From the NCBI GenBank assembly GCA_964609255.1, contig CAZSSS010000001.1, positions 1 to 25,533 on the forward strand: a stretch of 25,533 nt of DNA. The letters run 5' to 3'. Below, piece after piece: positions 5,074 through 24,815 of the stretch (its first letter is position 1; the number at the start of each line of letters is the position of its first letter). Both the position numbers and the translations under genes were made by a program. The notes under the pieces are model-generated. The model searched no databases and was not told the origin of the DNA. It saw only the letters and a list, made by a program, of their open reading frames with translations. This DNA comes from an uncultured Rhodobacterales bacterium. GTDB taxonomy: Bacteria; Pseudomonadota; Alphaproteobacteria; Rhodobacterales; Rhodobacteraceae.

Positions 5074-5101
5074 CGCAAAAGCGTTCATTTCCGAGGTATA
5101 A

Positions 5102-6403: not shown

Positions 6404-6406
6404 GAT

Positions 6407-6422
6407 TGTTTCACGTGAAACA
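6407..6422. promoter_or_regulatory. parS site 1 (perfect 16-bp palindrome)
   Basis: TGTTTCACGTGAAACA matches the universal parS consensus and overlaps the probable mnmG GTG start codon. Confidence 0.93.
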
Positions 6423-9720: not shown

Positions 9721-9735
9721 ACCCGAGGTATCAAA

Positions 9736-10617
9736 ATGACCAAAAAACCAACCCGACGGAGTCTTGGCCGCGGTCTGTCTACGTTGCTGGCAGATGTTGA
9801 TCTGAATGCTGATCGGCCAAGTGCGCATCGACCGATGGGCGAATCCACATTGCCGATTGAACAGTTACACGCCAATCCCGACCAGCCACGGCGGGATTTC
9901 AGTGTTGAAGACCTCGAGGACCTTGCCAACTCAATTCGCACAAAAGGTATCATTCAGCCCCTAATCGTGCGTCCTGACCCAAAAATTAGTGATGAATATC
10001 AAATAGTTGCAGGTGAACGTCGCTGGCGTGCTGCTCAGATGGCGCAAGTGCATAGAATCCCGGTAATTATTCGTCAGCTCGACGACACAGAGGTCTTGGA
10101 GCTGGGAATTATTGAAAATATCCAGCGAGCTGACCTGAATTCGGTTGAAGAAGCCTTGGGCTATCGTCAATTGATGGACCGTTTTGGCCATACGCAGGAA
10201 AAGCTGGCGGTGGCTTTGGGTAAATCTCGCAGCCATATTGCAAACCTTTTGCGTCTTTTGACTTTGCCTGACGAAGTTCTGACATACCTGCGTGAGGGAA
10301 AATTGTCATATGGCCATGCGCGTGCGCTTATTCCGTCGGTTAATCCGGCTGAATTGGCCCGCACAATTATTCGAAAATCGTTGAATGTGCGTCAAACGGA
10401 ACAATTGGCAAAATCTGATGGCACGCAATTGTCGAAAAAACGCCAGCTTCGCCCGGTAAAAGATGCTGATACGCGTGCGATCGAATCAGATCTTCAGGCG
10501 CATTTGAGGTTGAAGGTAAATATTGAGCACCGACATAATTCGGGCACCGGAGAGCTACGAATTTCGTATTCCTCATTGGAGGAGCTGGACGGGCTTTGTC
10601 AGCTCCTCTCAAAATAG
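9736..10617 (+). CDS. parB: Chromosome partitioning protein ParB/Spo0J
   Basis: LGRGLSTLL, NPDQPRRDF, GIIQPLIVR, IVAGERRWRAAQ (CTP-binding), IENIQRADL and HTH KSRSHIANLLRLL motifs. Confidence 0.97.
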   Translation: MTKKPTRRSLGRGLSTLLADVDLNADRPSAHRPMGESTLPIEQLHANPDQPRRDFSVEDLEDLANSIRTKGIIQPLIVRPDPKISDEYQIVAGERRWRAAQMAQVHRIPVIIRQLDDTEVLELGIIENIQRADLNSVEEALGYRQLMDRFGHTQEKLAVALGKSRSHIANLLRLLTLPDEVLTYLREGKLSYGHARALIPSVNPAELARTIIRKSLNVRQTEQLAKSDGTQLSKKRQLRPVKDADTRAIESDLQAHLRLKVNIEHRHNSGTGELRISYSSLEELDGLCQLLSK

Positions 10618-10618
10618 T

Positions 10619-11047
10619 TTAGTTGCGCACAACAAAAACGGATTGTCTGGCATAACGCACGACGCGCGCAGCGTTAGGGCCAAGAACAATATCAGTGCTG
10701 TTGGGCTGATATGATGAAATAACAATAAGGTCAGCGCCCAATTTATCGGCTATCTTATTGATTTCCTTATAGATTGACCCATGCCTAACGTAACAGGTCA
10801 CTTTCTGATCAGCCGGGACATGGTTTCGTGCAACTGCTTTCAGCTCATATTCCGCGTGCTCTATTGCTTTTTGAGCATAGTCTTTGGGAAAAAATGACCC
10901 CACCATGGCCATGCCAAAATCTGGGACAACATTAAATAACAACAGTTCTGCGTTGTCTTCTTTGGCCAGTTTTAGCGCCCTGGGCAGTGCAAGTTTCCAG
11001 GATGGTTCATCGTTAAGATCGATAGGCACAAATATCTTATTAAACAT
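10619..11047 (-). CDS. Universal stress protein, TRAP-associated (TeaD-like position)
   Basis: MFNKIFVPID, HGSIYKEI, ADLIVISS and LGPNAARVVRYA..SVFVVR USP motifs. Lies 11 bp after the TRAP permease; AAGGAG RBS. Confidence 0.88.
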   Translation of the reverse strand: MFNKIFVPIDLNDEPSWKLALPRALKLAKEDNAELLLFNVVPDFGMAMVGSFFPKDYAQKAIEHAEYELKAVARNHVPADQKVTCYVRHGSIYKEINKIADKLGADLIVISSYQPNSTDIVLGPNAARVVRYARQSVFVVRN

Positions 11048-11058
11048 GGTTTTCTCCT

Positions 11059-13680
11059 TTATGCCGTTTGGCTATTTAATTTACGTGCGCGGCCCGATTG
11101 CAAGAACCAGATAAGGGCCAGTAGCATTAATGCTGGAATATAGAACAGTTCTTTTGGCAGGCGTTCTGCGTCGATTTCTACCCGAATCACGTTCCAATAA
11201 AGATCAACACCGCGTTCGTCTGCGAAACTTTGCCCAACTATATTGTTAACAACATAATTGTCGCCGTCCGGTGCAAAAACCACACCAGCTATTTCCTTGA
11301 GCCGCGCGGCGCCATCGCCAATGCTCAATAATCCCAGCGGCAGTTCAAGCGTGGTTTCGGTTTGTCGGAAGGTTCGCGAATGCTCACCCGACATTCGAAT
11401 TCTCAGCACGGCGTCATCGGGCGCTTGGGTTGCCAAACGCTCAATTTCCGAAGCCGGAACAGTCACATAGGGTGCTTCAACCATATCCAGCCAGAATCCG
11501 GGTCGAAACAGGGTGAATGCAATTAATATCAGCGCCAGACTTTCCCAGATTCTTGATTTGGTAATAAACCAGTTTTGGGTTGCGGCGGCAAAAAGCAGCA
11601 TGGCAATAACCGCGATAATAAACACAAAAACCGCTTTCATCGGGGTCACGTCAATCAGCAAAAGTTCGGTGTTAAAGATGAACAAGAATGGCAGAATCGC
11701 CGTCCGCACATCATAACTAAACCCGATCAGGCCGGTTTTAATCGGATCCCCTTTTGAAATCGCCGCCGCGGCAAAGGCCGCCAACCCTACGGGCGGTGTG
11801 TCATCTGCCAGAATGCCAAAGTAAAACACAAACATATGCACCGCAATCAGCGGCACGATCAGGCCTGATTGTGCGCCGACCTCAATAATAACTGGTGCCA
11901 TTAGCGCAGTAATAACAATATAGGTGGCCGTGGTTGGCAGCCCCATGCCCAGAATAAGCGAGAATATCGCCACAAAAATCAGCATAAGCAGCAGCGAGCC
12001 ACCCGATATTGTCTCAATAAATTCGCCAATAACTTGATGCGCACCGGTTAATGTTACCGTGCCAACAATAATACCGGCGGTGCCTGTGGCAACCGCGATC
12101 CCGATCATATTGCGTGACCCGGAAATAAGGCCATCAATCAGTTGGCTCCAACCGGTTTTGATACCTGCGATGATGGCCCCGCTGCCTCGAAACATCGATT
12201 TCAGCGCGTTTTGGGTTATGGCCACAAATATCATGGCGATGGTTGCCCAAAATGCTGACAGCCCCGGTGAGAACCGTTCAATCATCAGACACCAGATAAG
12301 CACCACAACCGGCAGGCCGTAATAATACCCGGTCTTGGCAACATCGCCTGCAACAGGCAATTCCAGCAAGGGTTCGTCGGGGTCATCAACCACCAGATCG
12401 TCATACTTGGACGCCATATAAATAAGGCCAAGATAGGCAATCAGGAATACCACGGCCATGCCATAAACGGTATAATCACCAAACATGGGTTTTAACCAGC
12501 CAAGCCCGTAATAAACCCCGAGCGATAGCGCGATAAACACCAAAAATCCAAAAACCACGCTCATCAGACGTTGGGCTTTGGTGCGGTGATCACCCGGGCG
12601 AGGCATGCCCTCAAGGCCCATTTTGCAGGCCTCAAGGTGCACAATATAAACCAGCGCGATATAGCTGATAATCGCTGGCAGGAATGCGTGTTTGATAACC
12701 TCAAGATAAGGGATACCGACATATTCGATCATTAGAAATGCTGCTGCCCCCATCACAGGTGGGGTTAATTGACCATTGGTTGACGATGCAACCTCAACCG
12801 CGCCAGCTTTTTCGGCTGAAAACCCAACGCGTTTCATCAACGGAATGGTAAATGTGCCGGTGGTAACGGTGTTGGCAATGCTTGAGCCAGAGATCAGGCC
12901 AGTGGCGGCAGATGCCACCACGGCGGCTTTGGCCGGCCCGCCTTTTAGATGCCCCATCAGGGCAAAAGCAACTTTGATAAAATAATTCCCTGCTCCGGCT
13001 TTTTCAAGCAATGATCCAAACAGAACAAACAAAAATACCATAGAGGCCGAAACGCCCAGTGCTTGGCCAAATACGCCCTCGGTCTGCATCCAGAAATGCC
13101 CCATAGCTTTCTTAAAGCTGGCACCTTTCCATTGCATTGCATCGGGAATGAACTGTTGATCGCCAAAGAAAACGTAAATCAGAAAGAACCCGGCAACAAT
13201 GACCATTGGCAGGCCCAGCGCGCGATAGGTCGCGATTAACACAATCGTCAGACCAATTGCGGAAACAATCTGGTCTTTTGCAGTCCAGATACCGGCTGTA
13301 TCAGCGATCGCTTGTTGTGAAACCACAATATAGACACAGACCGAAACACCAGCCAGCGCCAGCACCCAGTCATAGATTGGAATATTGGTTTTGGATGACC
13401 CTTTGAACAACGGAAACGCAGTGCAGGCAAGGAACAAGGCAAAGGCCAGATGAATGGCGCGGGCTTTGGTGGAATCAACCACGAAAAAGCTTTGTCCGGT
13501 CCATGCGTTCAGATCAAACGGCAGGTTTGATGCGATATAAAGTTGAAAAATCGCCCAGGTTAAAGCAACCGATGTAATCAGTTTACCTTGCCATCCTATG
13601 GGGTTACGCGCGCCAACATCCAAATCGGCTGCCATTTCGGCGGCATCGATTCCGTTACCAGTATCTGTTGAATCTGTCAT
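11059..13680 (-). CDS. TRAP transporter 4TM/12TM fused permease with C-terminal extension (DUF3394-like)
   Basis: 873-aa highly hydrophobic protein with GGPAKAAVVAS, SGSSIANTVTTG, EVASSTNGQLTPPVMGAAAF, LGMGLPTTATY and ADDTPPVGLAAFAAA signatures. Confidence 0.93.
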   Translation of the reverse strand: MTDSTDTGNGIDAAEMAADLDVGARNPIGWQGKLITSVALTWAIFQLYIASNLPFDLNAWTGQSFFVVDSTKARAIHLAFALFLACTAFPLFKGSSKTNIPIYDWVLALAGVSVCVYIVVSQQAIADTAGIWTAKDQIVSAIGLTIVLIATYRALGLPMVIVAGFFLIYVFFGDQQFIPDAMQWKGASFKKAMGHFWMQTEGVFGQALGVSASMVFLFVLFGSLLEKAGAGNYFIKVAFALMGHLKGGPAKAAVVASAATGLISGSSIANTVTTGTFTIPLMKRVGFSAEKAGAVEVASSTNGQLTPPVMGAAAFLMIEYVGIPYLEVIKHAFLPAIISYIALVYIVHLEACKMGLEGMPRPGDHRTKAQRLMSVVFGFLVFIALSLGVYYGLGWLKPMFGDYTVYGMAVVFLIAYLGLIYMASKYDDLVVDDPDEPLLELPVAGDVAKTGYYYGLPVVVLIWCLMIERFSPGLSAFWATIAMIFVAITQNALKSMFRGSGAIIAGIKTGWSQLIDGLISGSRNMIGIAVATGTAGIIVGTVTLTGAHQVIGEFIETISGGSLLLMLIFVAIFSLILGMGLPTTATYIVITALMAPVIIEVGAQSGLIVPLIAVHMFVFYFGILADDTPPVGLAAFAAAAISKGDPIKTGLIGFSYDVRTAILPFLFIFNTELLLIDVTPMKAVFVFIIAVIAMLLFAAATQNWFITKSRIWESLALILIAFTLFRPGFWLDMVEAPYVTVPASEIERLATQAPDDAVLRIRMSGEHSRTFRQTETTLELPLGLLSIGDGAARLKEIAGVVFAPDGDNYVVNNIVGQSFADERGVDLYWNVIRVEIDAERLPKELFYIPALMLLALIWFLQSGRARKLNSQTA

Positions 13681-13737
13681 TTTGTTCCCTATCGTTCTAT
13701 AAAACCCAGCCGATATGTTTCAGCTTTTGGGTAAAGA

Positions 13738-13761
13738 GGTGAGGCCCGACCGGGCCTCACC
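13738..13761 (-). terminator. GC-rich stem-loop between the TAXI gene and the permease (weak terminator or mRNA-stabilising hairpin)
   Basis: GGTGAGGCCC-GACC-GGGCCTCACC, a 10-bp stem 9 nt after the TAXI stop, followed on the minus strand by only TCTTTA. Confidence 0.6.
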
Positions 13762-13770
13762 AAGAGGAAA

Positions 13771-14736
13771 TTAATCCATTAATCCAAGTTCCTGATACGC
13801 ACGGATCGCACCGGGGTGCAATGGCGCGGACAGGCTGTCGCGGATCATTTCTTCAGCTTTGAGGTTGGCAAATGCAGGGTGCAGTTTGCGGAAATCCTCT
13901 AGGTTGCCCAAAACAGCCAAGGCTACTTGGTAAACCGCTTCCTCAGACACGCTTGCGGATGTCACAAAGGTTGCGCCAACACCAAATGTCTGGATGTCGT
14001 CAGGGTTGCCCGGATACATGCCGCCCGGAATTGTGGCGTAACGATAATAATCGTTGGCCTCAACCAAAGCGTCAATTTCTGGCGAAACAGCTGGCACAAT
14101 AATCGCATCACAAGATGCAATGGTTTCTTGTGTCAGGCCGGATGGGTGACCCACCAACCAGAAATAACCGTCGATTTTGTTGTCGCAAAGTGCGCCAGCA
14201 GTTTCAGACGATTTCATGCCGGACGCCAGCGCCAGATCTTCACGAGCCCAGCCCATGGCACCTTCAATAACTTCCCATGTGCCCAATGTGCCCGAACCCG
14301 GGTTGCCAATATTAAAGCGTTTGCCCGGAATATCGGTGATATTGTTGATACCCGAATCGCGGCGCGCCAAGATGGTTACAGGTTCAGCGTGAACCGAAAA
14401 CACAGCGCGAAGATCTTCAAATGCGCCCTGTTCTTCGAATTTCGACGTGCCGTGATAGGCATGGTATTGCCAATCTGACTGCGCCACACCAAATTCCAAT
14501 TCGCCTTCGCGAATGGTGTTGATATTATAGATAGAGCCACCGGTTGATTCAACCGAGCAACGGAATCCGTGTTCAGCACGGTTTTTGTTGACCAAACGGC
14601 AAATCGCGCCGCCAGTTGGGTAATAAACCCCTGTCACACCGCCGGTGCCGATTGAAATAAATTGTTGCTGCGCAGCGACAGAGCCGCCCAAAGCACCAAC
14701 AACGGCTGCTGCAAGTGTAATATGTGTAAGTTTCAT
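13771..14736 (-). CDS. TAXI-family TRAP transporter solute-binding protein
   Basis: Signal-peptide-like N-terminus, then FISIGTGGVTGVYYPTGGAIC, STGGSIYNI, VAQSDWQYHAY, NIGNPGSG and APLHPGAIRAY motifs. Confidence 0.95.
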   Translation of the reverse strand: MKLTHITLAAAVVGALGGSVAAQQQFISIGTGGVTGVYYPTGGAICRLVNKNRAEHGFRCSVESTGGSIYNINTIREGELEFGVAQSDWQYHAYHGTSKFEEQGAFEDLRAVFSVHAEPVTILARRDSGINNITDIPGKRFNIGNPGSGTLGTWEVIEGAMGWAREDLALASGMKSSETAGALCDNKIDGYFWLVGHPSGLTQETIASCDAIIVPAVSPEIDALVEANDYYRYATIPGGMYPGNPDDIQTFGVGATFVTSASVSEEAVYQVALAVLGNLEDFRKLHPAFANLKAEEMIRDSLSAPLHPGAIRAYQELGLMD

Positions 14737-14781
14737 TCTTTTCTCCCAATAGACATATGTATTTTCTTACATGTTGCCATC

Positions 14782-14810
14782 CTAATATTTGTCGTCTAGG
14801 CGACATTCAA
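14782..14810 (-). promoter_or_regulatory. Candidate sigma70 promoter for TAXI-TRAP-USP with a 16-bp palindromic operator in the spacer
   Basis: Minus strand reads TTGAAT-N17-TATTAG. The palindrome TGTCG-TCTAGG-CGACA occupies 14790-14805. Confidence 0.5.
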
Positions 14811-14846
14811 GGTAAACGATGGCGTTTCGACCCCGAAATTAGAATT

Positions 14847-16454
14847 CTAAAAAGCCCCCGCATACTGGGTTTTATCGATGCGACAAGCAAGTAAACTGAA
14901 ATTTTTTGAACAGAGTGCACTATTTAGAGCGTTTTTCAACGATTTACTAGAATCAACCCAAACGGCGTTGCCGCCATAGGCGTTTACTATACTCACAAAA
15001 TCCGTTGACGCAAAATCTACTCCCAGATTGGGCAGGTTGCTTCGGCTTTGTTTAAGTTCAATGAGTGACAGCGACTGGTCAACCAGCAACACAACTATGA
15101 CCGGTAAGTGCATGTCGCGCAAGGTTGCCAGTTCTCCGATTACCATTTCCAAACCGGCATCGCCAATAAATGCGATAACTTTTGGACCATTTGGTCCGGC
15201 CGCCTTGGCATAACCAATGGCCAATGGCAGGCTGATGCCCATGGTGCAAAAACAACTGGATTGCAGCAAGGTTTGCGGCGCCAGACAGTGCCACATCTGG
15301 GATAGTAGAATCCGGTGTGCGCCGCTATCGGCAACAGCGATTGATCCGGCGGGAATAGTGTTTTGGATGGTGGCAAAAACAGTGTGCGGGCCCCATTCAG
15401 CACGGTCAGAAAACATGTCCTGCAGGGCGGTTTTGACGATGGATGGTTCACCATTAACCCAAGATTGCCCATGGGATGTTGTGTTTGATAAGGCCGCGAT
15501 GGCATTGGCAACATTGCCAATAAACCGCACCGCACTTCCGTGCATACCGTGTTGAATATCCGCATGGCTGATATCAATCGCAACGGTTGCATGCCACGGT
15601 TCGATCCAGCCGTTGCGCATTTCAATGGGGTCATAGCCTGCCAGAATGATGCAATCAGACTTGGCCAATAGCGGCAAAACCACCGTATCCGACAAAGGCG
15701 AAAGCCCGTGCCCGCCCAGCGATAACGCATGATCTTCGGGGATGATTCCCTTGGCCTTATAGGTGGTCAAAACCGGGATATTACGGGTTTCTGCCAGCGC
15801 CAGAATTGCGGCACCCGCATGGTGATGCACTGCGCCAAGGCCTGCCAAAATAATTGGCCGCCCAGCGTTTGCCAGCATTTTTCGGGCTTTGGCCAGCCCA
15901 TCGTCTTCAGCCCAGTTTACAGCGGCAGGGTATTGCAACGCGCGTTCAATCACCTGAATTTCAGATGGCGCAATATTGTGCGGAACATCCACATGAACCG
16001 GTCCCGGCGGGTCGGCTTTGGCGATTGCTATGGCTTTTTCAATCATGGCTTGGGCGCTGCCCTCACCAATTTGAAACTGTGCTTTGGTGATCGGGGCCAT
16101 TAAGGCGCTTTGGTCGATCACTTGATGGGTGAAACTGGCGGCCTCGGTGGCGGTGATACAGCCCGACAAAACAATCATCGGAACCTGTTCCTGAAACGCA
16201 TTGGCAACCGAGTTCAGCCCGTTGGCCAACCCCGGCCCGATCGTAGTCAGCAATATCGCTGGTGCGCCAGTGGCATGATATGTCCCCTCAGCCATGTATC
16301 CGGCGTTGTTTTCATGCTTGCACAGTGAAAATTCGATCCCAACCTGATCCAATGCTTGCATCAGCACCAAAACCTCGCCGCCGGGCATGCCAAATGCGTG
16401 GCGACATCCGGCATCATGCAGCTTTTGCGCAATGATTTCTGCGGCTGTGGTCAT
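14847..16454 (-). CDS. ThDP-dependent enzyme, acetolactate synthase/decarboxylase superfamily; substrate unknown
   Basis: AFGMPGGE, KHENNAGYMAEG (catalytic Glu), TIGPGLAN, PPGPVHVDVP, DSGAHR and MGISLPLAIG motifs. The ThDP motif reads GDA-x24-VD. ATGA overlap with acd. Confidence 0.85.
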   Translation of the reverse strand: MTTAAEIIAQKLHDAGCRHAFGMPGGEVLVLMQALDQVGIEFSLCKHENNAGYMAEGTYHATGAPAILLTTIGPGLANGLNSVANAFQEQVPMIVLSGCITATEAASFTHQVIDQSALMAPITKAQFQIGEGSAQAMIEKAIAIAKADPPGPVHVDVPHNIAPSEIQVIERALQYPAAVNWAEDDGLAKARKMLANAGRPIILAGLGAVHHHAGAAILALAETRNIPVLTTYKAKGIIPEDHALSLGGHGLSPLSDTVVLPLLAKSDCIILAGYDPIEMRNGWIEPWHATVAIDISHADIQHGMHGSAVRFIGNVANAIAALSNTTSHGQSWVNGEPSIVKTALQDMFSDRAEWGPHTVFATIQNTIPAGSIAVADSGAHRILLSQMWHCLAPQTLLQSSCFCTMGISLPLAIGYAKAAGPNGPKVIAFIGDAGLEMVIGELATLRDMHLPVIVVLLVDQSLSLIELKQSRSNLPNLGVDFASTDFVSIVNAYGGNAVWVDSSKSLKNALNSALCSKNFSLLACRIDKTQYAGAF

Positions 16455-17644
16455 GGCATGTATCCGTCGCGGCTTTGCGGTAATTTCATGTCCAGAATTT
16501 TCCCAGCAATGAGATTGCGCAGCATTTGCGCTGTGCCGCCACCGATCGTAAACATACGCGCGTCGCGCACCATTCGTTCCAGCGGCAAGTTGCGGGAATA
16601 TCCGGCTGCGCCGTGTAATTGCAGCGCATCATTGCTGACTTTGACCGCAGTTTCTGAGGCGGTAAGTTTGGCCTGCGCTGCCAATAAAGGGTCTGGAAAG
16701 CCGCTTTTTGTGTGTTCAGCACTTGCAGCGGCGCGCCAAATCATCATTCTGGCCGATTCAAGCGCCACATTCATATCCGCCAGCATCCATTGCAACCCTT
16801 GAAATTCGGCAATCGGACGGCCGAATTGTTCTCGCATTTTTACAAAATCCAAGGCTTGTTCATAGGCACCGGCCGCGATGCCCAGCGCCACGGTTCCCGC
16901 ACCAACCCGCTGACCGTTATAGGCGTTCATCAATCCGGCAAAGCCGCGTTTAACACCACCGGGCGGGATAAGCGCCATGCTGGCATCGATCTCCATATTG
17001 TCAAAAATAACTTCGGTTTCGGGAATTCCGCGCAGGCCCATAGCCGGTTCGCGGGTGCCAATTTTCAGCCCGTCATCCTCTCCGCGCACCGCAATAAACC
17101 CGCCAATGCCCAGCCGTTCGCCGTTTTCCTCAACCTGCGCAAAAATCAGATGCGTCTTGGAGACACCGCCGCCGGTAATCCAGTGTTTGACGCCATTAAG
17201 AATATATTTATCAGCCCGTTTAACCGCCGTGGTTGTCATTTGTGTTGCCGCAGATCCCGACCCCGGTTCAGTAATGCAAATCGCCGGTTTGTCCCCGGCC
17301 AAAATCAATGGCGCAATTCGATTTATCTGAGCATCAGAGCCATAAGCACAAATCGCGCCGATTGCGCCCATATTGCCCTCAACCACAATGCGCGCCGTAA
17401 CTCCGCATGTTTTTGCCAGTTCCTCAACCACCAACACAACATCCATATAAGAACAACCCATTCCGCCGTATTTCTTGGGAATAGTCATGCCCATGAACCC
17501 CGCCTCGGTCAGGGATTTTATGTTATGCCACGGGTATTCTTCGCTGCGGTCAACATCCGCTGCGCGCGGGCCGATAACATCTTTTGCCAGTTTTCGCGCG
17601 GCGTCCCGAAGCAACAATTGTTCATCCGTTAGGTAAAACATCAT
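16451..17644 (-). CDS. acd: Acyl-CoA dehydrogenase-fold protein, probable 3-sulfinopropanoyl-CoA desulfinase
   Basis: ACAD fold lacking both canonical catalytic Glu positions (YNGQR instead of xxER; FTIGGGTAQ instead of YEGTxQ). ARIVVEGN, KPAICITEPG, WITGGGVSK and the C-terminal KILDMKLPQSRDGY match the Advenella mimigardefordensis AcdDPN7 sequence as recalled. Start 17644 (ATGA overlap) or 17641. Confidence 0.82.
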   Translation of the reverse strand: MMFYLTDEQLLLRDAARKLAKDVIGPRAADVDRSEEYPWHNIKSLTEAGFMGMTIPKKYGGMGCSYMDVVLVVEELAKTCGVTARIVVEGNMGAIGAICAYGSDAQINRIAPLILAGDKPAICITEPGSGSAATQMTTTAVKRADKYILNGVKHWITGGGVSKTHLIFAQVEENGERLGIGGFIAVRGEDDGLKIGTREPAMGLRGIPETEVIFDNMEIDASMALIPPGGVKRGFAGLMNAYNGQRVGAGTVALGIAAGAYEQALDFVKMREQFGRPIAEFQGLQWMLADMNVALESARMMIWRAAASAEHTKSGFPDPLLAAQAKLTASETAVKVSNDALQLHGAAGYSRNLPLERMVRDARMFTIGGGTAQMLRNLIAGKILDMKLPQSRDGYMP

Positions 17645-18831
17645 TTGTCCCCGCGCCCCAGCCATTCATCCAATACCTCGTTTGTATTGGCCCCGCAAAG
17701 CGGCGGTGGATTACGGTATGTTACTGGCGACGCTGAAAATTTAACCGGATTACCGATAAGATCAACGGAGCCACCCAGATGCGCCATAGAAATTTTCATG
17801 TGCCGCGCCGCGACCTGATCGCTGTTGAAAACCTCAGCCAGATTGTTGATTGGCCCACAAGGCACCAAGCCTGCACTTAACCGAGATTCAAGATCAGCCT
17901 TTGCAAATGCTTTAATCACCGGAACCAGCAATTTTATCAGCGCATCGCGGTTGATAATGCGCTGCGGGTTTGTTGAATACAGGGCATCATTGGCCAGCGC
18001 GGATTGCCCGATAATATCACAAAACCGCTGGAATTGTTCATCATTTCCAACTGCTATCAAGATATGCCCGTCGCTGGTTTCAAAGGCTTGGTAAGGCACG
18101 ATATTTGGGTGCTGATTGCCGCGTCGCTGTGGAATGTCGCCTGATAACAGGTAATTCGTGCCTTCATTTACCAACCATGCAACCTGACAATCGACCAGTG
18201 CAATATCAATATGCTGCCCTTCTCCGGTTTGGTCGCGGTGCCGCAGGGCTGCCAGAATTGCGGTGGTGGCATACATGCCGCACATCACATCAGCAATGCC
18301 TACGCCAACTTTCATCGGTTCACCATTTGGCGCGCCGGTCAGGCTCATGATGCCGCCATACCCTTGCGCCATCAGATCATAGCCCGGCAAATGCGCGTTG
18401 GGGCCAGTTTGGCCGTATCCCGTAATGGAGCAATAAATCAGCCGGCTATTTATTTTCTTAAGGCTGGCATAATCCAGCCCATATTTTTTCAACCCGTTCA
18501 GCTTGAAATTCTCGATGAAAATATCGCTGACTTTTGCAAGATCCCGAATGGTTTTTGCGCCAGCTTTGGTGGTTATATCCACCCCGACCGAGCGCTTGTT
18601 GCGGTTTGACGACAGGTAATAAGCGCTTTCACTGGTTGGGCTGCCATCCGTTGCCGGAACATAGGGCGGCCCCCATTTTCGGGTATCATCCCCCATGCCG
18701 GGCCGCTCTATTTTTGCAATATCAGCGCCATAATCGCCCAGTAATTGCGTGCAGGTCGGCCCCGCCAAAATCCGCGAAAGGTCAAGCACCTTAAGCCCAT
18801 GCAGGGGACCATTTTTTGATTGATGCGCCAA
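17641..18831 (-). CDS. CaiB/BaiF family-III CoA-transferase (SUGCT/Act-like; probable succinyl-CoA:dicarboxylate-analogue transferase)
   Basis: VLDLSRILAGP, GDDTRKWGPP, YYLSSNRNKRS, YCSITGYGQTGP, GVGIAD (catalytic Asp) and HPNIVPYQAF motifs. TTG start. Confidence 0.88.
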   Translation of the reverse strand: MAHQSKNGPLHGLKVLDLSRILAGPTCTQLLGDYGADIAKIERPGMGDDTRKWGPPYVPATDGSPTSESAYYLSSNRNKRSVGVDITTKAGAKTIRDLAKVSDIFIENFKLNGLKKYGLDYASLKKINSRLIYCSITGYGQTGPNAHLPGYDLMAQGYGGIMSLTGAPNGEPMKVGVGIADVMCGMYATTAILAALRHRDQTGEGQHIDIALVDCQVAWLVNEGTNYLLSGDIPQRRGNQHPNIVPYQAFETSDGHILIAVGNDEQFQRFCDIIGQSALANDALYSTNPQRIINRDALIKLLVPVIKAFAKADLESRLSAGLVPCGPINNLAEVFNSDQVAARHMKISMAHLGGSVDLIGNPVKFSASPVTYRNPPPLCGANTNEVLDEWLGRGDK

Positions 18832-18868
18832 ATCGGTATTTTCCAGAGTCGTTACTCCGACAGATTAC

Positions 18869-18881
18869 TTAAATTTGTTAA
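18869..18881. promoter_or_regulatory. Candidate LysR recognition box (T-N11-A with dyad)
   Basis: TTAA-ATTTG-TTAA in the 116-bp divergent CoA-transferase/lysR intergenic region. Confidence 0.45.
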
Positions 18882-18947
18882 ATATAAAAGTTACTTTTTG
18901 TCGAAAATTGGCTGGTTAGTTTACCAAAACTAAACTAAACACCCTTA

Positions 18948-19826
18948 ATGAATTTACAGCAAATCAAAACGCTTGTCGCCATCATGGAGGAAGGCAGTTT
19001 TTCAGCCGCTGCTGAGCGGTTAGGGCTAAGCCATCCGGCAATTTCCCTACAAATCCGGCATCTTGAGCAGGAGTTTAACCGACCAATATTTGATCGATCT
19101 ACCCGGCCGCCGACCTTTACCGAAACAGGGTTGCGCGCCGCAGAAGCCGCACGACAATCGCTGGAAACTATTGCAAACATTACGTTAATTGGTTCGGGTA
19201 AACATCACACAGATACGTTGACCGTTGGGGCGGTGCCCACCGTTTTACAAGACAGCCTGCCTGTGATTTTGCGGAAAATTCAACTAAAACAACCCAACTT
19301 GCAGGTTAAAGTGCGGTCCGGCTTGTCCAGTGATTTAACTTCGCAAGTTTTAAACAGGGAAATCGATGTGGCGTTGGTCACTGGCCCTATTGCGCAATTT
19401 CCTGAATTGGACATTGTGCCGCTGGCCAAGGAACCGCTTTTTGTTATTGCTAACAAAGACATGCAGGGTTTGTCGGAAATTGACCTGTTACAAAGCCAGA
19501 CATTTATCGCATTTTCCTATAAAACCCTGTTGGGGCAGCAAATTTCGCAACAACTTCGAAAACGCAATATTTTTGTCAAAGAAAGCATGGAGGTCGATTC
19601 CGTTGCCGCGATCGAAAGTTTTGTGCGCGAAGGTTTTGGCGTCTCCATTGTTCCGCAACGGTATCTGGCCCCTGAGTTGTCAGATTATCTGACCCTTGTG
19701 CCGTTTTGTGAACCACAAGATTATCGCCAGCTTGTTGCGGTGTCCCTTAAGGACAGGTATCTGACAAACGGTATTCCGATTATTCATCGCGTAATTTCCG
19801 ACCTTAGAAAAGCATCGCGGCGCTAG
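18948..19826 (+). CDS. LysR-family transcriptional regulator
   Basis: N-terminal HTH MNLQQIKTLVAIMEEGSFSAAAERLGLSHPAISLQIRHLE, FDRSTR, 292 aa, divergent from the CoA-transferase operon. Confidence 0.95.
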   Translation: MNLQQIKTLVAIMEEGSFSAAAERLGLSHPAISLQIRHLEQEFNRPIFDRSTRPPTFTETGLRAAEAARQSLETIANITLIGSGKHHTDTLTVGAVPTVLQDSLPVILRKIQLKQPNLQVKVRSGLSSDLTSQVLNREIDVALVTGPIAQFPELDIVPLAKEPLFVIANKDMQGLSEIDLLQSQTFIAFSYKTLLGQQISQQLRKRNIFVKESMEVDSVAAIESFVREGFGVSIVPQRYLAPELSDYLTLVPFCEPQDYRQLVAVSLKDRYLTNGIPIIHRVISDLRKASRR

Positions 19827-19837
19827 GCTGTTGGCTG

Positions 19838-20206
19838 TTATTTTTCCGGTCGTGACCAGATAAATATTGCTGCGCCAAGCAGGCAAACCGCTTGAATCGC
19901 CAAAAATACTAGGGGGACCGTCAGGGTAACAGCCAGCCCAAGCGACGCCAGCATTGACACACTAGCATAAAATTTAACCCGGCGGCTGATGGCGCCGTTC
20001 TTTTCCCAATCCAGAATGGGAGGGCCGAAATATTGATGACTTATCAGCCAGTTATGCGTTTTGTCCGAAGATTTCCCAAATCCAATTGCTGCCAAAAGCA
20101 AAAACGGAACAGTTGGCAATATCGGTAGAAATATTCCGACTATGCCTAGCCCCAGTGCAAAAATACCAAGTAAAAACCAGAATATCCGTAAAATATCCTT
20201 GGTCAT
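19838..20206 (-). CDS. ybaN: YbaN/DUF454 inner-membrane protein
   Basis: LGIVGIFLPILPTVPFLLLAA, HQYFGPPILDW and GAISRRVK motifs. ATGA overlap with hemW. Confidence 0.88.
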   Translation of the reverse strand: MTKDILRIFWFLLGIFALGLGIVGIFLPILPTVPFLLLAAIGFGKSSDKTHNWLISHQYFGPPILDWEKNGAISRRVKFYASVSMLASLGLAVTLTVPLVFLAIQAVCLLGAAIFIWSRPEK

Positions 20207-21357
20207 AACAGCTCCCTCAGGATGCCGTTAAGCAATGGTTTACCTTTGGCGGTGCTGCGTAAATTTCCGCGGTAATTCTCGATTAACCCGTCGCTGGTCA
20301 AATCGTTAATAACGCTGGTTTTCAGTTTGGTTTTTGCCAATGATTCATATCGCGCAAGGTCCGCGCCTTCATTCAGACGCATCGACATCATCAGATATTC
20401 AATCGCTTGGTCAGTAGTGCTAAGCCGTTCAAATTCTGCCCGGCCAAGCCCGGTTTTTTTTACCTCATCCAGCCATTTTTCCGGCGATAAATGGGTGCTG
20501 CTGGCGAATCTCTGGCCATTTATGGTCAGGCGGCCATGGGCGCCCGGCCCGATGCCGGCGTAATCACCGTAACGCCAATAATTCAGATTGTGCAGACATT
20601 CTTTGCCATTTTTGCAGTGGTTTGAGGTCTCATACCCCGCCATTCCCGCCGCGCCGCAGATATCCTGAGTGGCAAAATACATGTCGGTCGCAATCGCTTC
20701 GTCGGGCAGGTTACGCAGTTTTCCGCGATTATAAAGATCACCAAAACGGGTGCCGTTTTCGATGGTTAATTGATATAATGACAGGTGGTCAACGGCCATA
20801 TCAATGGCCTTTTTCAGCTCATTGCACCAGTTTTCCAATGTTTGATTTTGCCGCGCGTAAATCAGATCAAAACTAACGTTTGAGAAATATTTCTTAGCAA
20901 TATCAAATGCTTTTATCGCATCCTCAGCAGAGTGCATGCGCCCCAGCGCCTTTAGATCCGTGTCATTCAGCGCCTGAATGCCCATCGATAAACGGTTTAT
21001 TCCCGCATCAGAAAACGCCGCAAACCGCCCGGCCTCAACCGATGTCGGGTTGGCTTCCATGGAAATTTCTGCGCCGGGGTTCAGGCCCCAAACTTTGTTA
21101 ATCTCGGCAATTATGATGGTGATGGTTTCGGGGGGCATCAGGCTCGGGGTGCCGCCGCCAAAGAAAACCGTATTAACATCGCGTGGGCCGGTGATTTTCG
21201 CGGTTTCGCGAATTTCGCTCACTAATGCATCGCGCCAAGCGGTTTGATCAATGTCAGCCCGAACATGGCTGTTAAAGTCGCAATAGGGGCATTTTGCCAA
21301 GCAAAACGGCCAGTGGATATAGACGCCAAATCCGGAATTTTGCCAGTCGTTGATCAT
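20203..21357 (-). CDS. hemW: Radical-SAM heme chaperone HemW (HemN-like)
   Basis: YIHWPFCLAKCPYCDFNSH, FGGGTPS, EANPTS, HLSLYQLTIE, HNLNYW and GIGPGAHG motifs. 384 aa, next to rdgB. Confidence 0.93.
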   Translation of the reverse strand: MINDWQNSGFGVYIHWPFCLAKCPYCDFNSHVRADIDQTAWRDALVSEIRETAKITGPRDVNTVFFGGGTPSLMPPETITIIIAEINKVWGLNPGAEISMEANPTSVEAGRFAAFSDAGINRLSMGIQALNDTDLKALGRMHSAEDAIKAFDIAKKYFSNVSFDLIYARQNQTLENWCNELKKAIDMAVDHLSLYQLTIENGTRFGDLYNRGKLRNLPDEAIATDMYFATQDICGAAGMAGYETSNHCKNGKECLHNLNYWRYGDYAGIGPGAHGRLTINGQRFASSTHLSPEKWLDEVKKTGLGRAEFERLSTTDQAIEYLMMSMRLNEGADLARYESLAKTKLKTSVINDLTSDGLIENYRGNLRSTAKGKPLLNGILRELL

Positions 21358-21740
21358 CCTTGAAACGCTGTGACCTCTATTTCGATTAACATTTCCGGTT
21401 TGATCAGCCCTGCGATGATCATGGTTGCTGCGGGGCGAATATCGCCAAGATATTTGCTGAAAACAGGCGACAGGCTGTCAACCAGATCGGAGCGAATAAC
21501 CGTATACTGAACCCGCGCGATGTCGGCCATTTCGAATTTGGCTTCGGCCAGCACTTTTGCGATGGTTTCAAAACAATTGCTGGCCTGCTCAACGATCAGC
21601 TCGGGCATTTCCATTGTGGTATAATTATACCCCGTAACGCCGGATACAAAACACCAATCGCCCTGCACCACAGCGCGGCTATATCCCATGGTTTTTTCAA
21701 ACGGAGATCCGGTGCTAATAAGTGTGCGTTCAGATTTCAT
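21354..21740 (-). CDS. RidA/YjgF/UK114-family protein
   Basis: GSPFEKTMGYSRAV, FVSGVTG, IRPAATM and EIEVTA motifs. Start set at ATG 21740 (ATGA overlap with the rdgB stop). Confidence 0.88.
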   Translation of the reverse strand: MKSERTLISTGSPFEKTMGYSRAVVQGDWCFVSGVTGYNYTTMEMPELIVEQASNCFETIAKVLAEAKFEMADIARVQYTVIRSDLVDSLSPVFSKYLGDIRPAATMIIAGLIKPEMLIEIEVTAFQG

Positions 21741-22348
21741 GTTGAAAAACATCCCCTTACGAGTTTTCGAAACGCGTCAGCGCGGTGGCTTATTTCGTTT
21801 TTCTCCCAGCGGTCCATCTCACCGAATGTGATGTCAAAACCGTTTGGCTGGAAAATCGGGTCATAACCATGGCCCTCCTCTCCCTTCATTGGCCAGACAA
21901 TTTGCCCGTCGATTTTGCCTTCAAAAACCTCGTCATGGCCATCAGGCCACGCCAAAACCAAGGTGCTGCAAAATCGGGCGATGCGCGGAAACGGTGCGTT
22001 AACTTCTTCTAGTTTGGCCCAGGTTTTGGTCATCGCCATAACAAAATCACGGCCATTCGGGGTTTCGGCCCAGTCGGCTGTGTAAACGCCCGGCGCGCCG
22101 CCTAAACCGTCGATCTCAATGCCGCTGTCATCCGCCAGCGCGGGCATGCCAGATTTTTTAGCAGCATAATGCGCCTTTATCCGGGCATTTCCGATAAAGT
22201 TATCTTCGGTCTCAACGGGTTCGTCAAAACCCAATTTGCCCGCAGAAACGGTCGAAATCCCGAAAGGTTGCATAAGCCGCGCAATTTCCTCCAACTTTCC
22301 TTGGTTATGGGTGGCTACAACCAGCTTTTCGGATTCAAACTTACGCAT
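21737..22348 (-). CDS. rdgB: dITP/XTP pyrophosphatase (HAM1 family)
   Basis: [32 protein letters not shown] and SHRADAF motifs. Confidence 0.95.
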
Positions 22349-23057
22349 TTACCGCTGCTTTTTGCGTCAAAACCAGCTCTGCCACGCCTTTTTCGGCCAA
22401 ATCCATTAGTTGGTCAAATTCTGCGCGGCTAAATGTTGCGCCCTCAGCAGAGCCTTGGATTTCGATCAATCCCTTATTGTCCGTCATTACAAAATTCGCA
22501 TCCGTGCCCGCGTCGCTGTCCTCAGGATAGTCCAGATCAAGCACCGGAACGCCGCCGTAAATTCCGCACGAAACCGCCGCAACATGGCTGGTTAGTGGAT
22601 CATCCTTAATATCGCCTGCTTTCAGCAATGCATTTACCGCCAGCCGTAACGCCACCCAACCACCAGTGATTGAGGCGCAGCGCGTGCCACCGTCAGCCTG
22701 AATAACGTCACAATCCACCGTGATCTGACGCTCCCCCAATGCTACGCGGTCAACACCAGCCCGCAAGCTGCGCCCGATAAGCCGTTGAATTTCTTGTGTT
22801 CTTCCAGATTGTTTACCCGCCGTCGCCTCACGCCGCATGCGTGATCCGGTGGAGCGTGGCAGCATGCCATATTCCGCCGTGACCCAGCCCAAACCAGAGT
22901 TGCGCAACCAAGGCGGCACGCGCGTTTCCAATGACGCGGTGCATAAAACATGGGTATCACCGCATTTTATCAGGCATGATCCTTCGGCATGTTTGGTGAC
23001 GTTTGTTTCGATCACAATATCGCGCATTGTGTCGTTGGTTCTACCGGATGGGCGCAT
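22341..23057 (-). CDS. rph: Ribonuclease PH
   Basis: [39 protein letters not shown] and [13 protein letters not shown] motifs. Start trimmed to ATG 23057 (AGGAG RBS). Confidence 0.97.
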
Positions 23058-23125
23058 GGGTATTCTCCTGATTTTGTTGAATATGCTCATACAGCGGCAC
23101 AACCAAGAGGTCCAGCATCCTTGCA

Positions 23126-23154
23126 TTGACGCTGCCCCTTAGAATGCTTAAATT
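23126..23154 (+). promoter_or_regulatory. Candidate sigma70 promoter for hrcA
   Basis: TTGACG (23126-23131), 17-nt spacer, TAAATT (23149-23154), ending 9 nt before the hrcA ATG. Confidence 0.55.
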
Positions 23155-23163
23155 CTTGCTGAT

Positions 23164-24219
23164 ATGACCAGTAAATCACCAATTTCGGACCTGAATGCGC
23201 GCTCCCGTGAGGTTTTTCGCCTGATCGTTGAGTCCTATTTAAAAACCGGAGAGCCGGTCGGCTCCCGCACGCTTTCGCGTGATATGGTTGAAAAAGTATC
23301 CGCAGCGACCATTCGAAATACTATGCAAGATCTTGAGCATCTCGGGTTGCTTGATAGCCCGCACACCTCTGCGGGGCGGTTGCCAACCCATCAGGGTCTG
23401 CGGCTTTTTGTTGATGGAATTCTTGAAATTGGCGATGTTTCAGGGCCAGAGCGGCAGGAAATTGAGAAATCGATCGATTCTACCGAAAATGACATGCAGT
23501 CGGTGCTGGATAACGCAGGTGCAATGCTGTCGGGGTTGACGCAAGGCGCAAGCCTGGTTTTGGCGCCCAAATCTGAGGCGCCTATCAAGCATCTGGAATT
23601 TGTATCCCTCGCGCCTGATCGCGCTTTGGTGGTGCTTGTCACTGCTGACGGCAATGTTGAAAACCGTCTTTTCACGCCGCCCGCTGGCTTGACCCCATCA
23701 GCCATGCGCGAGGCTGCGAATTTTCTGAATGCCATTCTGAACGGCCATACCGTTTCTGAAATTCGCACAATTGTTTCACGTGAAATACAGAAACATCGCT
23801 CGGAGCTGGATATCCTGTCTCAAAACCTCATCGAATCAGGGGTGGCGATTTGGGCGGATGCCCATCAGGAACGCCTGATCGTGCGTGGTCGCAGTAATTT
23901 ACTGGATGATTCCGCCACCGAGGCTGACCTTGAGCGCATTCGCCAACTGTTTGATGACCTAGAGCGCAAGCGTGATTTGGAACATTTATTGAACCTAACC
24001 GAGGCTGGCGACGGTGTGCGCGTTTTTATTGGTGCCGAGAACAAATTATTCTCACTTTCGGGTAGCAGTCTGGTGGTTTCTCCCTATATGAACGCTGAAC
24101 GGAAAATTGTTGGGGCGGTGGGTGTCATCGGGCCGACGCATTTGAATTACGCGCGAATTGTGCCAATTGTGGATTACACCGCGCAACTGATGGGAAGGCT
24201 GGTTTCAAACCAGTTGTAA
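23164..24219 (+). CDS. hrcA: Heat-inducible transcription repressor HrcA
   Basis: YLKTGEPVGSRTL, SAATIRNTMQDLE, PHTSAGRLPT, VFIGAEN and GVIGPTHLNY motifs. Confidence 0.97.
   Translation: MTSKSPISDLNARSREVFRLIVESYLKTGEPVGSRTLSRDMVEKVSAATIRNTMQDLEHLGLLDSPHTSAGRLPTHQGLRLFVDGILEIGDVSGPERQEIEKSIDSTENDMQSVLDNAGAMLSGLTQGASLVLAPKSEAPIKHLEFVSLAPDRALVVLVTADGNVENRLFTPPAGLTPSAMREAANFLNAILNGHTVSEIRTIVSREIQKHRSELDILSQNLIESGVAIWADAHQERLIVRGRSNLLDDSATEADLERIRQLFDDLERKRDLEHLLNLTEAGDGVRVFIGAENKLFSLSGSSLVVSPYMNAERKIVGAVGVIGPTHLNYARIVPIVDYTAQLMGRLVSNQL
23772..23787. promoter_or_regulatory. parS site 3 (one mismatch)
   Basis: TGTTTCACGTGAAATA inside hrcA, encoding IVSREI. Confidence 0.72.
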
Positions 24220-24228
24220 AGGAAAGAC

Positions 24229-24813
24229 ATGGCGCAGGAAGACGAAAACCCGTTTTTGGACAACCCCGAAACAATGGAAGAAGAGGAACTTGAAGCGCAG
24301 GAGCTGGCAGACCTCGCGCCAGCCTCGGTTGAGGATCTGGAGGCTGAAAATATTCAGCTCAAAGATCGGTTGATGCGTGCCATGGCCGAAACCGAAAATA
24401 TCCGCAAGCGTGGCGAACGTGACCGCCGTGAGGCAGAGCTTTATGGCGGCACCAAATTGGCGCGCGATTTGCTGTCAGTGCATGATAATCTGGGCCGCGC
24501 ATTGGAGAATCTGGATGATTTGTTGCGCGAAAATAATGCGTCGCTGGTCGAAGGGTTGGAGCTGACTCAACGTGAATTATTGTCCGTATTTGAAAAACAT
24601 AAAATCCTGAAGGTTGAACCTGAAATCGGGGCTAAATTTGATGCAAAACAGCATCAGGCGATGTTTGAAGCACCCGTGCCAAACACCAAAAAAGGCCACA
24701 TAATTCAGGTTATGGCCAATGGTTTTGTGATTGGTGACCGCCTTATTCGCCCTGCGCAGGTGGGCGTTTCGTCAAATACTGACCCTGTAAAGGCTGAAAA
24801 ACCCGAAGAATAG
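24229..24813 (+). CDS. grpE: Nucleotide exchange factor GrpE
   Basis: RAMAETENIRKR, DNLGRAL, FDAKQHQAM and GDRLIRPAQVGV motifs. AAAGGA RBS. Confidence 0.96.
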   Translation: MAQEDENPFLDNPETMEEEELEAQELADLAPASVEDLEAENIQLKDRLMRAMAETENIRKRGERDRREAELYGGTKLARDLLSVHDNLGRALENLDDLLRENNASLVEGLELTQRELLSVFEKHKILKVEPEIGAKFDAKQHQAMFEAPVPNTKKGHIIQVMANGFVIGDRLIRPAQVGVSSNTDPVKAEKPEE

Positions 24814-24815
24814 GA

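Follow-up and report, generated by a model that had tools for sequence, protein, structure and literature searches.

A gene unit built around acd

We have analysed a stretch of 25,533 nucleotides from an uncultured Rhodobacterales bacterium (contig CAZSSS010000001.1, positions 1 to 25,533; the window, from here on), in which a predicted 3-sulfinopropanoyl-CoA desulfinase gene, acd, lies in a unit of seven genes. The unit spans 10619-19826 and reads act-acd-ThDP-TAXI-TRAP-usp with a divergent lysR, where act encodes a family III CoA-transferase, ThDP an enzyme dependent on thiamine diphosphate (ThDP), and TAXI and TRAP the binding protein and the permease of a transporter. Its features are the following:

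18948-19826, plus strand: lysR, LysR-type regulator, divergent from the operon (Pfam HTH_1 and LysR_substrate)
18832-18947, no strand: lysR-act intergenic region, the presumed control region, 116 bp, AT-rich
17641-18831, minus strand: act, family III CoA-transferase (Pfam CoA_transf_3)
16451-17644, minus strand: acd, predicted 3-sulfinopropanoyl-CoA desulfinase with acyl-CoA dehydrogenase (ACAD) fold, non-redox (NF042439)
14847-16454, minus strand: ThDP-dependent enzyme (Pfam TPP_enzyme_N, _M and _C)
13771-14736, minus strand: TAXI-family TRAP solute-binding protein (TIGR02122)
11059-13680, minus strand: fused TRAP permease with C-terminal DUF3394 (TIGR02123, Pfam DctM and DUF3394)
10619-11047, minus strand: usp, universal stress protein (Usp), final gene of the unit (Pfam Usp, 77.8 bits)

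An earlier note on this DNA had described three minus-strand genes joined by ATGA overlaps and divergent from a LysR gene. Both the list of open reading frames (ORFs) and direct reading of the letters bear this out: TCAT stands on the plus strand at both 16451-16454 and 17641-17644, giving ATGA on the minus strand, and the stop codon of act overlaps the start of acd in this way. The start codon of act is TTG, with no other start candidate in its ORF; acd would start at 17644 if it is coupled to act, with an alternative ATG at 17665. The same note had ended the unit at the ThDP gene (14847), and here it has to be corrected: the TAXI, TRAP permease and Usp genes follow in the same orientation, with synteny kept in about 15 loci. 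The note had thereby missed the transporter, the best indication of what the substrate is. The Usp gene ends 1 bp from a convergent parB. Among the ORFs of at least 120 codons in the window we found no thiol dioxygenase, aldehyde dehydrogenase or sulfite exporter or oxidase, as had been stated before. A promoter and terminator scan of 10400-20300 gave counts not above those of shuffled sequence and was uninformative on sub-operon structure.

The ACAD-fold protein scored 647.8 bits against the NCBIfam desulfinase model NF042439 (equivalog cut-off 600), over profile positions 2-379 of 379, and the next model, that of acryloyl-CoA reductase, gave 320.6 bits against a cut-off of 640. Its best match in the PDB was AcdDPN7 of Advenella mimigardefordensis (5AF7/5AHS), with 494 bits over the full length and about 60% identity to this solved enzyme, followed by a structure with 249 bits. 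Pfam recognised three ACAD domains (Acyl-CoA_dh_N, _M and _1). In the numbering of the 397-residue protein, Gln245 in YNGQR stands at the base position of the isovaleryl-CoA dehydrogenase type, and alignment to butyryl-CoA dehydrogenase (5OL2) places Gly369 in IGGGTAQ where the Glu of YEGT should be, the position of Glu376 in medium-chain acyl-CoA dehydrogenase (MCAD). Hence, the two catalytic glutamates are indeed missing, as the earlier note had observed. It had also proposed to look for the equivalents of Arg84, Cys122 and Gln246 of AcdDPN7, and in the alignment with 5AF7 all three are conserved, as Arg85, Cys123 and Gln245. Among 86 aligned family members, 83 to 85 have these key residues and likewise the Gly in place of MCAD Glu376. 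We conclude that the ACAD-fold protein is Acd, an assignment as firm as homology allows, and one that the NCBI annotation pipeline makes automatically for plasmid matches. An ordinary acyl-CoA dehydrogenase was rejected, with both catalytic bases gone and the Acd equivalog cut-off passed. An antisense ORF of 306 codons within acd (16712-17632, plus strand) recurs in 62 related loci; as a gene it was rejected, being the shadow of the conserved acd frame.

The act product matched Pfam CoA_transf_3 over the whole profile (405.9 bits, positions 1-366 of 366). The nearest NCBIfam model was that of succinate-glutarate CoA-transferase, NF052585, but with 479.8 bits against a cut-off of 750 membership was rejected and the two are only related. 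The best PDB matches were 4ED9 and human SUGCT. The protein is 55-56% identical to the acd-adjacent CoA-transferases of Cupriavidus necator N-1, Paraburkholderia and Diaphorobacter, and a CoA-transferase gene adjoins acd in Advenella as well, in line with its previous reading as Act. Its catalytic Asp is predicted to be the one in the motif G-I-A-D181-V-M-C-G.

No NCBIfam equivalog was reached by the lysR product. In 39 of about 80 related loci acd or act has a LysR gene beside it, and the divergent gene described earlier matches the layout of LysR MIM_c31370 in Advenella (PMC5373536). Positions 18913-18926 between lysR and act form a dyad, TGGTTAGTTTACCA, and 18869-18881 match T-N11-A; a motif ACTTTTAT(A/T)TT on the reverse strand (18880-18894) is common to the window and to four of our related loci (L001, L003, L011 and L013). 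Other relatives carry a TGTTA-N7-TAACA dyad near lysR. The elements between lysR and act in the window presumably serve in regulation.

The transporter and the ThDP-dependent enzyme

The TAXI protein and the permease were recognised far above their cut-offs (TIGR02122, 317.7 bits with a cut-off of 84; TIGR02123, 636.7 bits with a cut-off of 320). With VcGluP (8S4J) the TAXI protein aligned at 408.7 bits and roughly 65% identity in the printed alignment. VcGluP is the glutamate-specific TAXI protein of Vibrio cholerae (VcGluP/VcGluQM, VC0430/VC0429); it holds the alpha-amino and alpha-carboxyl groups of glutamate through Y45, S75, Q93, H123, E125 and G156, and does not bind 2-oxoglutarate or adipate (PMC11574862). 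All six residues, including the key determinants Y45 and Q93, are kept in the window protein, and the permease shares with VcGluQM its fused architecture and the DUF3394 domain (PMC11574862). The pocket departs from that of VcGluP at four residues: S40G, D157T, Y200W and M201L. Every full-length acd-linked TAXI protein has W200 with L or A at 201, a combination found in none of six unlinked proteins (five plasmid relatives and VcGluP), which have Y200 with T, G or M at 201. S40G was rejected as a signature of the cluster, since Gly40 is also present in unlinked TAXI proteins, and T157 occurs in an unlinked TAXI protein of Sinorhizobium meliloti, so that only W200 with L/A201 is acd-specific. 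From these residues, the predicted ligand is an L-alpha-amino acid with the shape of glutamate and a different distal group.

A weak terminator-like hairpin (13708-13725, minus strand) lies within the 90-bp gap between the TAXI and permease genes, in a scan that as a whole did not exceed shuffled expectation; it may govern how much binding protein is made relative to permease. A Usp gene comes after the TRAP permease gene in 15 related loci, as it does in unrelated TAXI modules. Two TAXI-TRAP-Usp modules away from acd (L101 3455-10052 and L102 5926-12252) are under a MurR/RpiR regulator, and one in Pseudosulfitobacter (L098 4344-10028) is adjoined by a class-III aminotransferase only; the pockets of these three read G40/Q157/Y200/T201, a third subtype. 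In L001, L006 and L007, a class-III aminotransferase and BKACE, an enzyme of the 3-keto-5-aminohexanoate cleavage family, lie downstream. The idea that this pair makes 3-sulfinopropanoyl-CoA from a beta-keto acid was set aside because Thalassospira and Paracoccus have both genes together with TAXI-TRAP-Usp as a module of its own, and because the window lacks the pair.

Regarding the ThDP enzyme, all three Pfam domains are present, and it reaches no NCBIfam cut-off. Acetolactate synthase (ALS) was rejected on these grounds, with 327 bits out of 509 for the best model, PRK08322, 262 out of 510 for AlsS and 258 out of 538 for TIGR00118. Membership of AruI, the 5-guanidino-2-oxopentanoate decarboxylase (NF005712), was rejected as well (231.9 bits, cut-off 500). 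The model of Xsc, sulfoacetaldehyde acetyltransferase, did not appear among the 25 top-scoring NCBIfam matches, which extend down to 168.6 bits, and must therefore score below 169. The best PDB match of the single sequence had 181 bits, and a profile of the family gave 300 with AlsS. An AlphaFold2 model (pLDDT 88.7) superimposed on Bacillus subtilis AlsS with a TM score of 0.9 at 25% identity; structure prediction and the fold search in the PDB thus confirmed the fold and did not discriminate the function.

The closest family in both fold and sequence is that of the catabolic ALS (B. subtilis AlsS, 4RJJ; Klebsiella pneumoniae, 1OZF), with which the enzyme has in common the three domains, the His-Gln motif, GYDPIE, the Mg-binding Asp and no obvious FAD requirement. 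It differs from them in an identity of only about 25-30%, in Cys403 in place of the active-site Gln, and in a gene context unrelated to acetoin or branched-chain amino acids. The cofactor motifs are intact, with Glu48 in HEN and GDA431-X25-D459, all invariant in the family alignment. Two arginines are also invariant in the family: R280 in GYDPIEMR and R381 in DSGAHRI, which in AlsS are Asp and Ala, respectively. By homology to acetohydroxyacid synthase, the loops that carry them probably line the substrate site, and arginines fixed at such positions would fit a substrate with an anionic distal group. Neighbour-joining grouped all acd-linked ThDP proteins in a single clade, separated by a long branch from B. 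subtilis AlsS, with two rhizobial plasmid proteins basal to it. Homologues down to 55% identity carry generic annotations only, typically ‘acetolactate synthase large subunit’ or ‘thiamine pyrophosphate-binding protein’. According to these results, the enzyme belongs to a conserved clade outside the curated families, and we predict it to be a 2-oxo-4-sulfinobutanoate decarboxylase.

One could argue that the ThDP enzyme acts instead on a CoA thioester, in the style of oxalyl-CoA decarboxylase or 2-hydroxyacyl-CoA lyase (OXC/HACL), or downstream, for example in an Xsc-like handling of sulfite. The classic Oxc/Frc arrangement likewise combines a ThDP enzyme with a family III CoA-transferase, and plasmids of Rhizobium pair the ThDP protein with an Act-like CoA-transferase in the absence of acd. 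However, the family profile gave 170-208 bits on OXC/HACL chains and about 300 (280-300) on the catabolic ALS, on which OXC/HACL identity was rejected, and the low score of the Xsc model speaks against the downstream variant. Besides, many loci hold acd-ThDP with no CoA-transferase at all, and the aminotransferase and succinate-semialdehyde dehydrogenase (SSADH) partners described below imply that both the 2-oxo acid and the aldehyde occur in free form. We regard this explanation as very unlikely.

The acd-ThDP pair in other bacteria

A scan of one genome per species yielded 80 loci with an Acd of at least 67% identity, and other fetched loci brought the set to 91. Genes were counted by tblastn; greedy gene calling gives shadow ORFs and over-long N-termini in GC-rich loci. 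In this gene-neighbourhood survey, of the kind suggested in the earlier note, an orthologue of the ThDP enzyme (45-71% identical) lies directly downstream of acd in 47 of the 91 loci, among Alpha-, Beta- and Gammaproteobacteria, Actinobacteria and SAR324, and 30 of these 47 also hold Act. The two genes overlap by 1-8 nt in 25 out of 42 loci, 17 of them by 4 nt, through the same ATGA. Overlaps of 4 nt are common in operons; this one is meaningful because it recurs in related loci. The partners found in loci with and without the ThDP gene were as follows:

Act: 30 of 47 ThDP-positive loci, 8 of 44 ThDP-negative loci
TAXI: 17 of 47 ThDP-positive loci, 1 of 44 ThDP-negative loci
Aminotransferase, class I/II or III: 10 of 47 ThDP-positive loci, 0 of 44 ThDP-negative loci
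Cysteine dioxygenase (CDO) or the thiol dioxygenase Mdo: 0 of 47 ThDP-positive loci (within 10 kb), 2 of 44 ThDP-negative loci

Both CDO/Mdo loci are betaproteobacterial plasmids with the order CoA-transferase - Acd - CDO - LysR. That the window might merely hold an ordinary short-chain acyl-CoA dehydrogenase, a paralogue of acetolactate synthase and a glutamate transporter brought together by chance is in keeping with the generic annotations of the homologues. We find it hardly credible for an ACAD that has no catalytic bases and passes the Acd equivalog, next to an enzyme that reaches no ALS cut-off, in a gene order that is conserved and overlapped across phyla.

Several loci supply the enzymes that the window does not. 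In Acidovorax sp. NCPPB 4044 (L092), a divergent LysR gene is followed by genes for an aminotransferase like aspartate aminotransferase (AspAT), a CoA-transferase, Acd (670 bits with NF042439), the ThDP enzyme, two TctC proteins, an ArgE-like M20 deacylase, an SSADH (658.8 bits with TIGR01780, cut-off 646) and a YeiH-family putative sulfate exporter. Streptomyces (L093) and a Burkholderiales metagenome-assembled genome (MAG; L094) share the order aminotransferase - CoA-transferase - Acd - ThDP, divergent from LysR, and in a gammaproteobacterial MAG (L052) an aminotransferase gene lies between ThDP and TAXI. Plasmid pBB1 of C. necator N-1 carries LysR - CoA-transferase - Acd - TctC and, about 5 kb from this group, aminotransferase - ThDP - aldehyde dehydrogenase - M20, with a ThDP orthologue that is 46% identical and 5.3 kb from acd. 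The Acd of this strain is said to have been characterised experimentally by Schürmann et al. in 2014. A SAR324 contig has Acd-ThDP with a CoA-transferase and a TauD gene nearby.

Other arrangements were also observed around acd. On plasmid pW43B of Parasedimentitalea marina, acd is a pseudogene in four frameshifted pieces (L086 7761-8986); the ThDP gene that overlaps it and lysR, which is divergent, are both intact. In one alphaproteobacterial lineage (L004 7779-8726 and L005 2020-2967), the place of the CoA-transferase upstream of acd-ThDP is taken by a thioredoxin-reductase-like Pyr_redox_2 gene, which might encode a disulfide reductase step. A TTC38-like tetratricopeptide repeat (TPR) protein of about 460 residues, with many conserved histidines, adjoins acd in 12 loci; it was recorded in L024, L031, L045, L046, L059, L061, L066-L068, L077 and L084, and with coordinates in L087 (11861-13261), L088 (7042-8370) and L096 (10151-11482). 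It also accompanies ThDP and OpgC on plasmids of Rhizobium, there with an Act-like CoA-transferase too, and of Bosea, and on pML2037 of Mesorhizobium loti it lies with PuuA- and PuuD-like genes beside CoA-transferase - Acd - YeiH. This protein may be part of a further route to 3-sulfinopropionate (3SP). Finally, six loci combine acd with a gene for a TauD-family Fe/2-oxoglutarate dioxygenase, divergent from acd in five of them (L049, L054, L063, L064 and L073; the sixth is L095, 5990-6820), which hints at yet another upstream source of the substrate of Acd.

In the window itself, parB and a DUF454 gene border the module within a stretch of housekeeping genes near the origin (3790-10617 and 19838-25502), with rho, mnmE, mnmG, rsmG, parA and parB on one side and the DUF454 gene, a hemW-like gene, RidA, rdgB, rph, hrcA, grpE and a mutS fragment on the other. 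In the close relative L001 the same module is flanked instead by SMC, TPR and thioredoxin genes. Because its neighbours are so different in close relatives, the module behaves like a mobile cassette.

To place these findings, we compared the window with the two described systems. The Advenella cluster for 3,3'-dithiodipropionate (DTDP) and 3SP has the order LysR - family III CoA-transferase - Acd - Mdo - AhpD - TctC, with LysR MIM_c31370, CoA-transferase c31380, Acd c31390 and Mdo c31400 in strain DPN7 (PMC5373536). Shared with the window are LysR, Acd and a family III CoA-transferase whose gene immediately precedes acd. What differs is the next gene after acd, that of Mdo there and of the ThDP enzyme here, and the transporter, TctC there and TAXI-TRAP here. 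The substrate in Advenella is a thiol, 3-mercaptopropionate, and activation there is by SucCD according to the literature. In Variovorax paradoxus TBEA6, the cluster comprises acdA (05440), act (05450), caiD, a semialdehyde dehydrogenase (05570), mdo (05600) and a ‘putative acetolactate synthase IlvX’, VPARA_05550 (PMC6370202). IlvX increased 3.9-fold on 3,3'-thiodipropionate (TDP) and 6.8-fold on 3SP, the semialdehyde dehydrogenase near ilvX was also induced on 3SP, and deletion of ilvX left growth on TDP unchanged (PMC6370202). As in the window, there are Act, AcdA and an ‘acetolactate synthase-like’ ThDP protein, and an aldehyde dehydrogenase in addition; unlike in the window, the genes are spread across about 16 loci, do not overlap, and include mdo. 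The earlier note had presented the ThDP enzyme as an extra one absent from act/acd clusters, a statement that IlvX and the 46%-identical orthologue of C. necator N-1 overturn. A ThDP enzyme in an acd cluster has been seen before, yet without explanation, and in the literature searched we found no paper that assigns the acd-linked enzyme or describes the route proposed below.

A proposed route from homocysteine sulfinate to 3SP

Taken together, the seven genes may form a catabolic module in which a glutamate-like sulfinate amino acid is turned into 3SP with the help of the ThDP enzyme and then degraded by Act and Acd, a proposal that we consider quite possible if short of probable. TAXI-TRAP would import a glutamate-like L-amino acid with its distal carboxylate replaced by a sulfinate, the likeliest being L-homocysteine sulfinate. 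An AspAT-type enzyme, whose gene is in the operon in other bacteria and not in the window, would convert it to 2-oxo-4-sulfinobutanoate, which the ThDP enzyme would decarboxylate to 3-sulfinopropanal. A dehydrogenase of the succinate-semialdehyde type, whose gene is likewise absent from the window, would oxidise this aldehyde to 3SP. Act would then move CoA, probably from succinyl-CoA, onto 3SP, and Acd would release sulfite from 3SP-CoA to give propionyl-CoA. LysR probably senses an intermediate of the pathway. The CoA transfer and desulfination steps would follow known chemistry, with strong homology behind them; import, transamination, decarboxylation and oxidation are suggested by gene context.

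The route would be the sulfinate counterpart of that from glutamate through 2-oxoglutarate, succinate semialdehyde and succinate to succinyl-CoA. A substrate of the glutamate/succinate type is proposed because the partners are a VcGluP-type transporter and enzymes of the AspAT, SSADH and SUGCT (succinyl-CoA:dicarboxylate) types, and Acd fits this pattern because it acts on the sulfinate analogue of succinyl-CoA. Homocysteine sulfinate, in turn, is proposed because it is the only alpha-amino acid that yields 3SP after transamination, decarboxylation and oxidation. The same three-step logic is known from the arginine transaminase pathway, in which the aminotransferase AruH, the ALS-like ThDP decarboxylase AruI and the aldehyde dehydrogenase KauB act in turn, and which shows that the ALS fold can act as a simple 2-oxo-acid decarboxylase. 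AruI is an analogue in logic only, as its substrate is cationic and that of the window enzyme is predicted to be anionic. The ThDP route would take the place held by Mdo in clusters of the Advenella type, which fits with ThDP and Mdo being mutually exclusive in the survey and with IlvX being induced by 3SP and dispensable on TDP.

Act and Acd could also degrade 3SP that is imported as such, or that a distant Mdo makes from 3-mercaptopropionate (derived from dimethylsulfoniopropionate and methylmercaptopropionate, DMSP/MMPA, or from DTDP or TDP), and the ThDP enzyme would then be an accessory with no role in 3SP formation. Act and Acd alone are sufficient for 3SP (literature summarised in PMC6370202), 3SP is an analogue of succinate that TRAP could transport, and the deletion of ilvX in V. 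paradoxus had no phenotype on TDP. Nevertheless, the acd-ThDP coupling is kept over several phyla with translational overlap, the TAXI pocket retains the residues that bind the alpha-amino group while VcGluP takes neither 2-oxoglutarate nor adipate, Mdo is found in none of the 47 ThDP loci, and aminotransferases are confined to loci with the ThDP gene. We hold this explanation to be unlikely.

In another alternative, the ThDP enzyme would decarboxylate a thiol or thioether 2-oxo acid, either 4-mercapto-2-oxobutanoate from homocysteine, to give 3-mercaptopropanal, or 4-methylthio-2-oxobutanoate from methionine, to give methional, and an Mdo encoded elsewhere would form the sulfinate later. The sequence of aminotransferase, decarboxylase and aldehyde dehydrogenase would suit it equally well, sediment studies have traced 3-mercaptopropionate to methionine and homocysteine, and the V. 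paradoxus TBEA6 cluster holds both ilvX and mdo. Against it stand the absence of CDO/Mdo within 10 kb in all 47 loci, and an anionic distal group favoured by the dicarboxylate-type partners (AspAT-like, SSADH above its cut-off, SUGCT-like), by the glutamate-type transporter and by the two invariant arginines of the ThDP enzyme, so that we judge it improbable. The earlier note had held that the sulfinate arises by another route, is imported or is made by genes elsewhere, and the transporter and the ThDP enzyme give more substance to the first two options. As for the sources it listed, homocysteine sulfinate is now favoured, whereas 3-mercaptopropionate, DTDP, TDP and DMSP/MMPA become less likely because none of the 47 loci has Mdo/CDO and the partners are of the dicarboxylate and glutamate types.

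Some observations weigh against the homocysteine sulfinate route. The upper pathway is proposed from gene context and its substrate is deduced from the chemistry of 3SP precursors, and housekeeping enzymes must be assumed because the window has no aminotransferase or aldehyde dehydrogenase genes. In the literature searched we came across no account of homocysteine sulfinate serving as a nutrient in the environment or for bacteria. The ThDP enzyme is nearest, in sequence and in fold, to the catabolic ALS, which are carboligases, and shares their His-Gln motif. By chemical reasoning, 3-sulfinopropanal might readily eliminate sulfite and become acrolein. Basal ThDP relatives on Rhizobium and Bosea plasmids lie with OpgC and a TPR protein, not with acd, and the Rhizobium one also neighbours an Act-like CoA-transferase that is 52% identical. 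TAXI-TRAP-Usp occurs as a separate module with a class-III aminotransferase and BKACE in Thalassospira and Paracoccus, and thus part of the TAXI linkage could be inherited synteny. Lastly, IlvX (VPARA_05550) is likened to the window enzyme by its description only; a homologue search seeded with the C. necator ThDP protein gave no Variovorax entry among the 120 matches listed, although it did bring up the operons of Acidovorax, Streptomyces, Rubrivivax and SAR324.

The Act/Acd reading is right and already known in kind, and the acd-ThDP coupling points, along with the transporter, to an upper pathway that has yet to be described. In its widest form, which we put forward as a tentative possibility, bacteria of many groups (marine Alpha- and Gammaproteobacteria, SAR324, soil Betaproteobacteria and Streptomyces) would share a widespread and undescribed pathway in which a C4 amino acid with a sulfinate group, either L-homocysteine sulfinate itself or an N-acyl derivative, is catabolised as a mimic of glutamate, with a dedicated TAXI-TRAP or TctC importer and a new 2-oxo-4-sulfinobutanoate decarboxylase that feeds Act and Acd. 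Two soil bacteria able to degrade synthetic thioethers and disulfides were the original source of Acd, whose role in nature had remained unclear. Acd is common in marine bacteria, and about half of its loci are tied to the ThDP enzyme, so that the breakdown of the sulfinate analogue of glutamate offers a testable natural function for it, for which genetically tractable hosts such as C. necator N-1 exist. If the proposal is true, Acd would be fed by interchangeable upper pathways, namely Mdo, the ThDP route, the TTC38-like TPR protein with Puu-like genes, and TauD-like dioxygenases; an ‘acetolactate synthase-like’ family misannotated in thousands of genomes would gain a new substrate, and the orphan IlvX of the V. 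paradoxus cluster would be explained. Homocysteine-level sulfinates would then be a real and so far unmeasured pool in the organosulfur cycle of sea and soil, and confirmation would add a new class of compounds and a new route of sulfite release to the marine part of that cycle.

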